Positions 42,958 through 56,218 of a stretch of 64,000 bases of DNA are shown one piece after another. The DNA comes from a virus (taxonomy: Duplodnaviria > Heunggongvirae > Uroviricota > Caudoviricetes), in the IMG/VR virus record IMGVR_UViG_3300037067_008064, positions 64,001 to 128,000 of that record, one strand, 5' to 3'. Positions within the stretch are counted from its first letter, which is position 1. Each line of letters begins with the position of its first letter. A program made the translations under genes and the position numbers. The notes below the pieces were generated by a model that saw only the letters and a program-made list of their open reading frames with translations, was not told the origin of the DNA and did no database searches.

Positions 42958-43635
42958 TTATGCATTAATATTCTTAAAGACATAATATAAATCCTGTATT
43001 GCTTTTTCATTTAATAATTTAAATGCTTCATTGGGTTTAAAAAATGGAATATATTTCCACTCCTCATATTCAATTAATCTAAGTTGAATTATTTTTTTAA
43101 AATTGTATTTTCGAAAAGCATAATCAAAACTTGCATTAAATTTTTTATTGAAAATTTTCATGAAAATAGAAGTATTGTTTCCGGATTTAATATATCGTAT
43201 AAAGTTTTCGTTGATTCTTAATTTATCGTTTTGTGTATAATTTTCAACATCAGAAAAAAATTCTTTATAAATATCATAATAATAATCTAAAAATTTTAAT
43301 CTTTCTTCTTCTGGAAGCATATTAAAATTAATCCCATTAAAATAATCTTTTCCATTATTAATGCAAAATACAATAGGTATGTAATCTATATAATTTTTTT
43401 TACTGTTTTGAAAAAGATTTTGTATTCCTTCTTTATAAATAAATGTGTAAATCATACCGGGTAATGGTATAATTCCTTTTAATAAACTTTCTTGATCTGT
43501 TGAATCTATTTCAGTTCTTTTTGCAAATCCTTTAATATTATGTTTGATATATTTTTCAAAAAGTACTTCTCTTGCTGTACCTTCAGGATTTGTAATTTTT
43601 TTACATTCCTCATATTGTTCTGAAAATTTAATCAT
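42958..43635 (-). CDS. DNA end protector, T4 gp2-like (start moved to MIKFSE)
   Basis: PGMIYTFIY...YIDYIPIVF...GINFNMLP..R. Confidence 0.65.
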   Translation of the reverse strand: MIKFSEQYEECKKITNPEGTAREVLFEKYIKHNIKGFAKRTEIDSTDQESLLKGIIPLPGMIYTFIYKEGIQNLFQNSKKNYIDYIPIVFCINNGKDYFNGINFNMLPEEERLKFLDYYYDIYKEFFSDVENYTQNDKLRINENFIRYIKSGNNTSIFMKIFNKKFNASFDYAFRKYNFKKIIQLRLIEYEEWKYIPFFKPNEAFKLLNEKAIQDLYYVFKNINA

Positions 43636-43645
43636 TTCGTATCTA

Positions 43646-44245
43646 TTATGTTTTATTAAAACGCATAAGAATATTCTTAAGTGTTTCTTCTGTAAAAATA
43701 TAAAATTTACAATTATTTTTCTGAGCCCAAGCATTAATAGCAGCAAATTTAGCTTCATTTGATAAATATTCTTTTGCTTTATTAACAAATTGTCTTTGTT
43801 CTCTTAATGGTGCATCTTTAACTGGAGGAACTGGTTTTTTTAATTTATGACTTGGTTTTATTTCTATAAATATTTTTTCTAATACACCATTATTATTTTC
43901 TTGTTCAATCCAAAAATCAACATTATAATATTTTATTTTCCAATTTACTGGGTTATTTGGGTTTAACCCTAATTTTTGATTTTCTTCCAACTTAGCTGTT
44001 CTATCATAGTATGGAACCCTAATTGGTTCCGCACTCCATCTTTTAATAGATGTACTGTAATCACAATATTTACAAAATGCAAATTCCCAACTTGACCTAT
44101 AAATAATAAGGTCTATTGGTCCAACATATTTACTTGGATTTTCTGGTTTATAATATCCTTGTTTAGACCACGATGTTCCACCTTCAGCTTTTGTTCCAGT
44201 TAAATTAGGTTTATGCCATTTTTTATATGCAGAATTATAATCCAT
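43646..44245 (-). CDS. Head completion nuclease, T4 gp4-like (TnsA fold)
   Basis: YRSSWE, WSAEPIRVPY, YNVDFWI, IEIKP. Confidence 0.9.
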   Translation of the reverse strand: MDYNSAYKKWHKPNLTGTKAEGGTSWSKQGYYKPENPSKYVGPIDLIIYRSSWEFAFCKYCDYSTSIKRWSAEPIRVPYYDRTAKLEENQKLGLNPNNPVNWKIKYYNVDFWIEQENNNGVLEKIFIEIKPSHKLKKPVPPVKDAPLREQRQFVNKAKEYLSNEAKFAAINAWAQKNNCKFYIFTEETLKNILMRFNKT

Positions 44246-44948
44246 TTATTTTATTATTTTTACAATTATTTCCATGACACCTGTTATATATATTTAAAGG
44301 AATTACTTTATTACAATAAATACATTTAATTCTTGAATTTATTGAACCTATACTTATTTTATTTTTAACTTCTTCAGTTTTTTTAATTCCTTTTTTACCA
44401 TTACTTATTTTAATTTTAGTTTGAATTGATTGTATTCTACCTAAATTTTTATTTGTATTTCCATTTATATAATTTTTTCTTGATTCTTCTGTACATATTT
44501 TTCCTTTGTTACTTATAGATATTTTTTCGCGTGTTTCTTTAGTGACAATATGATTTTTTAAAGTTTTAGATATTTTTTCATTCCATTCTTTAGTATGTTT
44601 TATATTTTTTAATTTAGTTCTAGTTTCATCAGAAATTGGAGTATGTTTAATTATTTTAATTACATAATCATAATCTTTTGCTGAAATTTCATATTTACGT
44701 TTATTCATAAAAGACATTAAATGAAACGCATGATTTATTTTTTTATTTCCTTTATAAATTTTTGTTAATAATTTATGTGCTATAAAATGTTCTTTTGCTG
44801 TCAATAAAACTAAATTTTCTTTTTCATTAGTACCATTTAAACATTTAGGAATAATATGATGTTTTTCATAATAATATTTTTTACTCTTTTTTCTTGATTG
44901 TATTTTAGCATTATTTATTAATTTTTCATATGTTTTTTGATAATCCAT
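44235..44948 (-). mobile_element. Free-standing HNH homing endonuclease
   Basis: EKHHIIPKCLNGTNEKENLVLLTAKEHFIAHKLL; paralog of 32628..33194. Confidence 0.9.
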
Positions 44949-53700: not shown

Positions 53701-53943
53701 TTATCCTTCAACCTTTAGCCATTTACCATTTCCTTGTTTTCTATATCTTTGACCATATCCGGTGCCTAATTTACCAACACCATAAACATCAAAAGTGGTT
53801 GGAGTCATTATAGCCCAAGGACCTTTATTTGTTTTTCCATCTATGAATTCATTGAATATCATATCTCCAAAATCATCAAAATCACCTATAACACCTGTCC
53901 AATATATAGGTGCCTTAGCTTCATTTACTTTTATTGCTTTCAT
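53701..53943 (-). CDS. Hypothetical protein with MKAIKVNE tag
   Basis: Tag motif. Confidence 0.65.
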   Translation of the reverse strand: MKAIKVNEAKAPIYWTGVIGDFDDFGDMIFNEFIDGKTNKGPWAIMTPTTFDVYGVGKLGTGYGQRYRKQGNGKWLKVEG

Positions 53944-54779: not shown

Positions 54780-54938
54780 TTATCTGCATCCGTGGCATCC
54801 ACTGCATTGAATACAAAATCTTCCGCCATTAAATTGTTCCCAAATTTCTTTTGGAAATGCTAAGCTATTTCTTTCAACAAATTTAGGTTTTTCATAAACA
54901 GCTTTTTTAGTTTCTTTTTTAATTTTTATAGTTTCCAT
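54780..54938 (-). CDS. Cys-rich RiPP-like precursor peptide A (52 aa; start moved to METIK)
   Basis: VYEKP...LAFP...CIQCSGCHGCR. Confidence 0.7.
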   Translation of the reverse strand: METIKIKKETKKAVYEKPKFVERNSLAFPKEIWEQFNGGRFCIQCSGCHGCR

Positions 54939-54951
54939 TTTATTTATTATT

Positions 54952-55143
54952 TTATCTACAACCATGACATGAAGAACATTGTCTACATCCCAGAGCTGCA
55001 AAATGAATACATTCTCTATAACATAATTCTGTTTTACAATCTTGACATTGTTTATTAATAAAATGTTTTATTCCATCAAATGGAAATGTCATTTTATCTA
55101 CTCGATATATATCTGGTTTAATATAAACTTCTTTTGTTTCCAT
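54952..55143 (-). CDS. Cys-rich RiPP-like precursor peptide B (63 aa)
   Basis: VYIKP...MTFP...CRQCSSCHGCR plus four extra Cys. Confidence 0.7.
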   Translation of the reverse strand: METKEVYIKPDIYRVDKMTFPFDGIKHFINKQCQDCKTELCYRECIHFAALGCRQCSSCHGCR

Positions 55144-55884
55144 TTAAAATTCTTTTAGGGCATCACAAAATCCTAATTTTTTTCTTTGAATAACCCATTC
55201 TGGTACTCCAATCATTCTTGCAATATCTTTCCATAAAATTTTTCCCGTATCACAACTTACTCTATCTTCATAAGGAATATGAGAAACATATTCTATAAAT
55301 TTATCATCTGTAAAAACCGTAATAATATTAACTCCTGCTTTTATTCCAGAAGAATTAAGAGGCTTTAAATGAAAAGGTTCTAATTGATCCCAAAATTTAT
55401 TAAAAGCATAACCAATTGGTTGTTTTCTTATTTTATAATTCCAATGTTCCCAATATCCACCCATTAATTCATCTATACCATCTGTACATAATACATCAGT
55501 AGCATATTTAGATGCCTTTAGTAATATTAATAATACGGCTTCATCACCATCAGAATATTCTGATGTAAACAATTTCCTTGCTTCTTCTCTAGTTTTTTGA
55601 GATGGAATATAAACATCTAATTTAAAATTCATTTCTTTAGCAAACCTGGTGGCAGAAACTACATCAGGATGATTATAATTTGGCCCAATAGTAAAATAAC
55701 GAGTATCGGGATTAAATTGATGTGCTAAAATAGCTAATATAGCACTGTCAACTCCACCTGATAATAATACACCAGGGCGATTACCTTTCATTTTTTTAAA
55801 CCCATCTAATACTGCTTGTTTTGTGACTTGAAGAAAATCTTCTTTTGTGTAATTTAATTGTTTTGATAATTCAATTGTTTTCAT
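55144..55884 (-). CDS. Asparagine-synthase C-domain-like PP-loop enzyme without glutaminase domain (start moved to MKTIE)
   Basis: LLSGGVDS, TDGIDELMGGY, GKILW, RKKLGF. Confidence 0.85.
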   Translation of the reverse strand: MKTIELSKQLNYTKEDFLQVTKQAVLDGFKKMKGNRPGVLLSGGVDSAILAILAHQFNPDTRYFTIGPNYNHPDVVSATRFAKEMNFKLDVYIPSQKTREEARKLFTSEYSDGDEAVLLILLKASKYATDVLCTDGIDELMGGYWEHWNYKIRKQPIGYAFNKFWDQLEPFHLKPLNSSGIKAGVNIITVFTDDKFIEYVSHIPYEDRVSCDTGKILWKDIARMIGVPEWVIQRKKLGFCDALKEF

Positions 55885-55885
55885 A

Positions 55886-56218
55886 TTAATTCTTTTTAAG
55901 TTGTCTATCGGCGCATGGTATTTTTTGACCATCTTCTATTGCTTCGTTTTCACTCCAATATACTTTTTGATCTTCCATTAAACCAGTTATACAATGATAC
56001 ATTTTTCCATCCTTTCCCATAACATGGTCCATTTGATATTTATTTCCTAAATGATCTAACATAGGACAGTGGTGTAATTCTTCATCTTTATTTTTTTTAT
56101 CTGCAGCGTGAACATGGTGTATTAGATATAGCCAGTTTTCTAAAGCAGGCCCTGTTTCATTTAAATATTGATATTCATTAATATTTTCCGGAACTAGTTT
56201 TGTATTTTTTTCTTTCAT
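55886..56218 (-). CDS. His/Cys-rich hypothetical protein with ENINE/LNE motif
   Basis: HHVH, HHCP, DH, YHC. Confidence 0.6.
   Translation of the reverse strand: MKEKNTKLVPENINEYQYLNETGPALENWLYLIHHVHAADKKNKDEELHHCPMLDHLGNKYQMDHVMGKDGKMYHCITGLMEDQKVYWSENEAIEDGQKIPCADRQLKKN

Follow-up and report, generated by a model that had tools for sequence, protein, structure and literature searches.

The window, a 64,000-nucleotide stretch of the Caudoviricetes record IMGVR_UViG_3300037067_008064, carries four closely packed genes on its minus strand. The most upstream gene (55886 to 56218) encodes a 110-residue His/Cys-rich protein with the motifs YLIHH, ELHHC, DHLGN, WSE, and PCADRQL; we call it HHC, after the motifs YLIHH, E..HHC, DH.GN, and WSD, and it is present in a single copy in the phage genome. 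It is followed by a gene (55144 to 55932) for an enzyme that consists of the synthetase domain of an Asn synthetase, without a glutaminase domain, and by the genes of two small Cys-rich peptides, the 63-residue peptide A (54952 to 55143) and the 52-residue peptide B (54780 to 54938). The enzyme and peptides A and B are real genes, and the first-pass annotation, made from the sequence of this DNA, had described their positions, motifs, and spacing correctly: the ATG of peptide A comes immediately after the TAA of the enzyme, and a 13-nt spacer precedes peptide B. The span given in that annotation (54780 to 55884) leaves out the HHC gene, the conserved neighbor of the enzyme. The annotation read the enzyme gene as 246 residues from the ATG at 55884 (55144 to 55884), but the start probably lies at the ATG at 55932, giving 262 residues, as MVKKYHAPIDNL aligns with the MVKRYPAQIGSW N termini of homologues. 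With this start, the enzyme gene overlaps the upstream HHC gene by 47 nt.

The phage genome comprises 316,176 bp with 26% GC and ~400 genes, at an estimated completeness of 78% for the record. Peptides A and B are the only reading frames ending in CxxCxxCxxC in these 316 kb. The HHC-enzyme pair of this jumbo phage is located between helicase and SbcCD genes, at a distance of 12 kb from the gene for the portal protein; the helicase-to-SbcCD region contains many small genes without known function. Logan contigs from three other sequencing runs (landfill and groundwater) include pieces identical to the window, also across the enzyme/peptide A junction, and thus the gene arrangement is not an assembly artifact. 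No RNA run was among the runs with matching contigs. A scan of the region for promoters and terminators returned promoters at the level of the shuffled background and no terminators, blastn of the region gave a single weak match confined to the helicase part, and a search of GenBank phages with the peptide and the enzyme yielded no matches.

The enzyme carries the motifs SGGVDS (PP-loop LSGGVDS at residues 41 to 47), DELMGGY, and RKKLGF. Its only Pfam match is Asn_synthase (PF00733; E = 3e-20, 73.6 bits against a cutoff of 21), and NCBIfam AsnB models were matched only in the C-terminal half and far under their cutoffs. A PDB sequence search returned weak matches only. In superposition, the AF2 model of the enzyme (pLDDT 92.7, built on 23 homologues) comes closest to the synthetase domains of human ASNS and E. 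coli AsnB, followed by the carbapenam and beta-lactam synthetases, and Foldseek placed it with 9b6c, 1ct9, and 8sue at a TMq of 0.79 to 0.80 and a probability of 1.00. The predicted fold and these Foldseek matches therefore point to a PP-loop, carboxylate-adenylating, amide-forming type of enzyme that lacks a glutaminase-type domain, and in this respect the earlier description of the enzyme as AsnB-like agrees with both PF00733 and the structural comparison. Members of the AsnB family (1CT9, human ASNS, beta-lactam/carbapenam synthetase, TsnB9, and the lasso cyclases) share with it SGGxDS, DExxGGY, and the synthetase-domain fold (TMq 0.80); whereas the lasso cyclases and beta-lactam synthetase retain an inactive N-terminal domain, the window enzyme has none and is paired with HHC.

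Three more specific assignments were considered and rejected. As a glutamine-hydrolyzing AsnB (TIGR01536), the enzyme scored 63 bits against 267, and at 246 to 262 residues it has no N-terminal Ntn glutaminase domain with Cys1. As a lasso or macrolactam-type cyclase, it scored 12.7 bits against a cutoff of 300 (NF033561) and likewise lacks the N-terminal domain. As a QueC, it had no NCBIfam QueC match (P0001) and matched only phrog_1550, at E = 0.0022 and in the PP-loop region. We collected 90 other homologues of 186 to 330 residues, which are mostly metagenomic; the enzyme is 69% identical to P0004 and 57% identical to P0005, and a metagenome scan for closer relatives with flanking sequence found none.

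The genomic partner of the enzyme is HHC. An HHC gene is found directly upstream of the enzyme gene at 17 of the 19 nearest viral loci, and no Cys-rich peptide gene is present at any of the 19. In the two contexts that were analyzed first (L001 and L002), the enzyme homologue sits in the head module, between portal/MuF and prohead protease/capsid genes, and is preceded by an HHC gene; the window HHC is ~50% identical to these two upstream genes and scores 155 bits with the HHC HMM. HHC homologues also precede ~290-residue relatives of the enzyme in CPR-like contigs, near housekeeping genes. When 1.84 billion representatives were searched with an HHC profile, just 70 HHC proteins were retrieved, in which the domain is usually C-terminal and is found fused to portal plus MuF, portal, S78 prohead protease, D12 DNA methylase, or phosphoribosyltransferase. 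The window shows the same arrangement, with the HHC gene directly upstream of the synthase, on the same strand, and overlapping its start. HHC-AsnS is a separate two-gene module of phage head-gene regions and CPR-type genomes, and HHC is the conserved partner of the enzyme. The AF2 model of HHC is poor (pLDDT 60), every HHC look-alike in the atlas had a TM of <0.5, and the complex prediction for the enzyme and HHC scored 0.00, with the fold of the partner uncertain.

Peptides A and B can be aligned over M-E-T, VYxKP, [LM]xFP, and the last 11 residues, CxQCSxCHGCR, a similarity far beyond chance. The shared motifs had been recognized in the first-pass annotation, but the four additional Cys residues that it assigned to the second peptide are actually in peptide A, the 63-residue peptide beside the enzyme. 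By its VYIKP-x8-MTFP leader and its terminal CRQCSSCHGCR, peptide A fits the family, of which it represents a different subtype from peptide B. The 19-residue insertion that holds the four Cys is unique to it; the family search found no homologue with this insertion, which might give peptide A a different role. Peptide B is typical of the YEKPxF..FPKEIWEKFNGGRFCIQCSGCHGCR subtype, i.e., the standard FNGGRFC[ILV]QC subtype, with 62 to 75% identity to 15 other family members, and its relatives include the operon-borne peptides P0106 (operon L004) and P0104 (operon L207).

A profile built from A and B led to a tight family of 17 close clusters, and profile scans located it in 75 MAG loci and 47 viral contigs. 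The MAG carriers include Bathyarchaeia, Methanoperedens, Thermoplasmatota, Bacteroidota, Desulfobacterota, Actinomycetota, Chloroflexota, Planctomycetota, CPR, and DPANN. The conserved part of ~38 residues consists of Y-E-K-P, x8, M-x-F-P, a variable stretch, and C-x-Q-C-S-x-C-H-G-C-R at the stop. We defined the family by Y-x-[KR]-P, 8 to 10 residues, [ML]-x-F, and then C-x-Q-C-[SA]-x-C-H-G-C-[RK] at the stop codon, a pattern to which both A and B conform. The C-terminal motif is present in 109 of 109 distinct family members, and this invariance of the 11-residue core implies tightly constrained chemistry. No Asp or Glu is invariant in the family, and the sole constant carboxylate is the C terminus. 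The initial view of A and B as precursor-type peptides, in which both the leader and the core are conserved, is borne out by the family as a whole. Pfam and NCBIfam peptide models, including those of SCIFF and of ranthipeptide/sactipeptide precursors, gave no matches for P0002, P0003, and P0106; searches of Pfam, NCBIfam, and PADLOC models and of the literature showed that the peptide family is not covered there, and the motif was not found in print.

The neighborhood analysis proposed with the first reading was carried out at the family level and confirmed a co-occurrence of the peptides with PqqD/RRE, radical SAM/SPASM, and an Asn synthase homologue. In ~50 of the 75 MAG loci, the peptide gene belongs to an operon with the order radical SAM/SPASM, PqqD, peptide, MBL (in part of the loci), toroid protein, Asn synthase, and GT4, and this order is conserved across phyla. 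A DNA methylase is sometimes included, a ~1,000-residue MBL-fold protein or a 589-residue unannotated protein is among the parts, and the toroid is a 280-residue prenyltransferase/terpene-cyclase-like protein. By tblastn, the radical SAM gene was detected in 47, the toroid in 44, the Asn synthase in 42, the MBL in 29, and PqqD in 23 of the 75 MAG loci. The best NCBIfam match of the operon radical SAM enzyme is TIGR04340 (ACGX-system maturase), at 196 bits against a cutoff of 400. The operon Asn synthase is either short (~270 residues) or long (~570 to 620 residues), and nearly all long forms start with MCG..., the nucleophile of an active glutaminase; the operon step is thus most likely a glutamine/ammonia-dependent amidation and not a lasso-type cyclization. 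The lasso analogy originally drawn for this locus fails on the same ground, since the long synthases retain the glutaminase Cys and are amidotransferases, and on the low score of the enzyme with the lasso cyclase model. No B2 transglutaminase-like leader peptidase is included among the Pfam matches of the locus neighbors and the cellular operon proteins.

In the RefSeq annotation of a Desulfovibrio operon, the peptide is left out and the toroid gene is labeled hypothetical, and there is no NCBI record for the peptide. MatE-type exporters flank 3 of the 10 operon loci sampled, which hints that the operon product is exported; the other flanks contain restriction-modification genes (sometimes), DNA ligase, and transporters. 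PADLOC returned generic radical SAM/viperin matches for the operon proteins and a weak candidate for the MBL (PDC-M48B, E = 7e-4), with no matches for the others. With such mixed flanks and only generic or weak PADLOC matches, location of the operon in a defense island was not established. A literature search covering the operon composition, orphan precursors in phages, and Asn synthases in head modules returned nothing specific.

The viral copies of the peptide are orphans. In the 47 viral loci, tblastn detected none of the operon enzymes, except for one ordinary AsnB 5 kb away, and the viral peptide genes are often near terminase and portal genes. About 25 MAG loci, mostly from CPR and DPANN, are orphan as well; a search for the toroid gene in seven CPR/DPANN MAGs with an orphan peptide gave no matches, and the positive controls, genomes with the operon, were detected in three of three cases. 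The leader motifs are retained in the orphans with the same frequency as in the operon copies, and viral and operon peptides share 89 to 100% identity over the 38 conserved residues. Within this conserved part, viral L124 is 100% identical to L059 from Bacteroidales, and L109 and L111 are 95% identical to L055. In the 316-kb phage genome (78% complete), no PqqD/RRE (PF05402) was found at E ≤ 1, and none of the toroid, MBL, and GT4 genes or an orthologous radical SAM gene was found. The phage has a SPASM enzyme of its own (genome positions 289576 to 290655), which was rejected as the operon maturase, being unrelated to the operon radical SAM enzyme. Because the radical SAM/SPASM and PqqD genes that adjoin the peptide in cells are absent from the phage, the window peptides are orphan members of the family.

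We built a synthase tree, a quick search with few outgroups, in which the synthases without a glutaminase domain form one clade (SH-aLRT 94) and the branch of short operon synthases is sister to the HHC-linked branches. The window enzyme itself falls within the HHC-linked phage clade. Since this clade is sister to the short synthases of the operon, the adjacency of enzyme and peptides may be functional. Among the loci examined, the window is the only case of an HHC-type synthase abutting these peptides. The contig of P0005 has the order of a 102-residue gene (presumed HHC), AsnS, and a 291-residue protein with faint matches to the toroid family. By position alone, exact abutment would be expected in ~1 in 100 to 200 genomes, and the adjacency in the window could be chance.

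The closest precedent is viral pqqA: phages of methylotrophs carry orphan PQQ precursor genes, and the PqqD/PqqE pathway is that of the host (Coutinho et al. 2020, Microbiome 8:163, PMC7678222). Here, as there, the phage carries the precursor alone, and the radical SAM/SPASM and PqqD enzymes would be those of the host. The peptide family is nonetheless unrelated to PqqA, and its predicted product is Cys-rich and probably cross-linked and glycosylated, not PQQ; moreover, the window has two diverged copies beside an Asn-synthase-like enzyme, and orphans occur in CPR and DPANN as well. With SCIFF-CteB, PapA-PapB, subtilosin-AlbA, and the ACGX system (TIGR04340), the cellular operon shares a Cys-rich precursor, a radical SAM/SPASM maturase, and a PqqD-type RRE, whereas compared with these sactipeptide and ranthipeptide systems it adds an Asn synthase, the toroid, the ~1,000-residue MBL, and GT4, and has an invariant C-terminal CxQCSxCHGCR core. 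In mycofactocin biosynthesis, the peptide MftA is served by the PqqD-like MftB, the radical SAM/SPASM enzyme MftC, the peptidase MftE, and the glycosyltransferase MftF. Like our operon, this pathway brings together an invariant peptide C terminus, PqqD, radical SAM/SPASM, a hydrolase, and a glycosyltransferase, with no dedicated immunity gene. The operon uses other enzyme families, however (GT4, MBL, Asn synthase, and toroid), and its MatE flanks hint at an exported product, not an internal cofactor. In the HXS antiphage system, a small protein matured by a radical SAM enzyme can be the antiphage effector (Li et al. 2026, Nat Commun 17:3910, PMC13128918). HXS has no sequence relationship to the operon described here, which has restriction-modification flanks only sometimes and generic or weak PADLOC matches.

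The locus is not a lasso cluster and, given that the operon machinery is absent from the phage and that the normal partner of the enzyme is HHC, it is probably not a self-sufficient RiPP operon either. From the sequence comparisons, we consider it somewhat better than an even bet that two conserved gene sets meet here, namely, orphan precursors that would use or block host machinery and a separate HHC-AsnS module. The YxKP...MxFP leader of the phage peptides would be bound by the PqqD/radical SAM machinery presumed to be present in the infected host. Once bound, the peptides would either be matured into product, i.e., the phage would supply precursor as with viral pqqA, or occupy the machinery as decoys; a decoy role is conceivable because proteins matured by radical SAM enzymes can be antiphage effectors, as in HXS. 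The enzyme, judging from its Asn-synthetase fold and PP-loop, would adenylate a carboxylate and transfer it to ammonia or an amine, with HHC as its usual partner or substrate. That in this phage the enzyme also performs the amidation-type step of the operon on both peptides is conceivable, but we lean against it. A broader proposal, which we find rather unlikely, is that phages, CPR, and DPANN exploit or jam host radical SAM maturation through host-matched orphan precursors, that in this jumbo phage the capsid-linked HHC-AsnS pair provides the only tailoring step contributed by the phage itself, and that HHC is a docking or cargo domain on portal, MuF, or protease proteins through which the synthase or other enzymes enter the virion.

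The original proposal for this locus was a self-contained phage RiPP operon, in which the AsnS-like enzyme alone adenylates a peptide carboxylate and thereby produces an amide or a macrolactam, with no radical SAM step. The TAA-ATG abutment and the 13-nt spacer suggest co-translation, the peptide family is tied to Asn synthases in ~40 cellular operons, the sister group of the enzyme is formed by the short synthases of these operons, and a chance adjacency is unlikely among ~400 genes. We nevertheless judge this proposal unlikely, as the phage lacks PqqD, the orthologous radical SAM, toroid, MBL, and GT4, and the clade of the enzyme accompanies HHC and never such peptides (0 of the 17 nearest viral loci with HHC). 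Conversely, 46 of the 47 viral peptide loci are without an Asn synthase; in cells, the peptide adjoins radical SAM/PqqD, and the synthase is found two or three genes off; neither Asp nor Glu is invariant in the peptides, the C-terminal carboxylate alone being constant; and lasso features are missing. Another alternative is that the two sets are mere neighbors, with HHC and AsnS forming a virion-associated or head-maturation module and the peptides being independent accessory genes of the same variable region. HHC occurs as a fusion with portal, MuF, and prohead protease, small phages have the pair between portal and protease/capsid genes, the two gene sets co-occur in no other locus examined, and the helicase-SbcCD region is rich in small unknown genes. 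Coincidence is, however, an improbable explanation in our estimate, in view of the exact abutment of the genes and of the independent ties of both sets to the chemistry of the operon (the sister synthase clade for one and the gene with faint toroid matches in the P0005 contig).

A further alternative is that the peptides are not modified at all but act as small proteins that bind Zn or Fe-S, for example, by supplying a QueC-like Cys4 site in trans, as the first-pass annotation had suggested, or as redox or metal partners. PP-loop enzymes such as QueC and TtuA bear Cys4 metal sites, the core packs four Cys and one His within 10 residues, and orphan copies persist in genomes without a modifying enzyme. 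Against this, the order of radical SAM, PqqD, and peptide is the classic layout of a maturase substrate, conservation of the leader equals that of the Cys core, orphans included, the peptides are widespread without a PP-loop neighbor, and full-domain long synthases are present in the operons. We regard this alternative as highly improbable. The reading as orphan precursors beside a separate HHC-AsnS module is the one that we favor.

Altogether, the locus appears to represent a known kind of system, a radical SAM/PqqD peptide pathway plus an orphan precursor carried by a phage, in a form not described before, and the HHC-AsnS pair adds a phage gene pair that is likewise undescribed. The peptide and operon family is apparently unannotated and is found across many phyla of anaerobes, both bacterial and archaeal. 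The HHC-AsnS pair, for its part, may represent a distinct enzyme system of the head modules of uncultured phages. Near-exact orphan copies in phages and in tiny-genome symbionts suggest a general tapping or blocking of the peptide-modification machinery of their hosts, and such use by dependent organisms would extend the single known example, viral pqqA.

Several variants of the cellular operon, the gene set comprising radical SAM/SPASM, PqqD, peptide, MBL, toroid protein, Asn synthase and GT4 genes, were found in metagenome-assembled genomes (MAGs). Six loci of a single Desulfobacterota-type lineage (L031, L037, L038, L061, L071, and L073) have acquired a gene for an N6/N4 DNA methylase within the operon, between the peptide and MBL genes. 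Restriction-modification genes are located immediately upstream in L004 and L005. Another set of variant operons (L066, L069, L070, L077, L078, and L082) carries a second radical SAM gene, and four of these (L066, L069, L070, and L082) also encode a small P-loop kinase-like protein with AAA_33/nSTAND3 matches. The long Asn synthase is retained in L066, L077, and L078; no Asn synthase gene was detected in the operons of L069, L070, and L082.

Orphan copies of the peptide, those lacking the operon, occur in tiny-genome symbionts, namely, CPR and DPANN MAGs (L045, L060, L064, L068, L075, L079, and L083), where they are adjoined by housekeeping genes. At some loci (L040 and L064), the orphan peptide forms tandem pairs. 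The toroid gene, the sole operon component searched genome-wide, had no match in these seven CPR and DPANN MAGs.

The phage itself encodes a 359-aa radical SAM/SPASM protein outside the window (G000:C1:289576-290655, plus strand), which is unrelated to the operon maturase and whose gene is flanked by small uncharacterized genes. Another of the phage's radical SAM proteins, 274 aa long, is encoded at about 43441-44274, next to NUDIX and SLT genes. Near the peptide genes, an 80-aa ORF (window 53701-53943, minus strand) matches phrog_23287 and phrog_29767 (E about 1e-7), both PHROG families of unknown function; the small ORFs around it were without matches. In all three other runs, the Logan contigs break between the two peptide genes (window 54825-55012), probably because the nearly identical 3' coding repeat common to both genes exceeds the assembler's word length.

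The gene for HHC, the His/Cys-rich protein encoded upstream of the Asn synthase-like enzyme, shares 47 dual-coding nt with the enzyme gene (window 55886-55932, minus strand). The same bases encode, in two frames, the HHC C terminus (..DGQKIPCADRQLKKN) and the enzyme N terminus (MVKKYHAPIDNLKRIN). Homologues keep both overlap-encoded strings, PCANRQLE and RYPAQIGSW; since the overlap is read in both frames, conservation of one may be a mere consequence of conservation of the other. HHC also occurs as a domain of larger proteins (L141:4023-5948 and L147:2746-5886; proteins P0137, P0176, P0146, P0150, and P0169), where its fusion partners are portal, portal plus MuF, S78 prohead protease, a D12 adenine methylase, and a phosphoribosyltransferase. 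This fusion pattern resembles that of a capsid-targeting or cargo domain.
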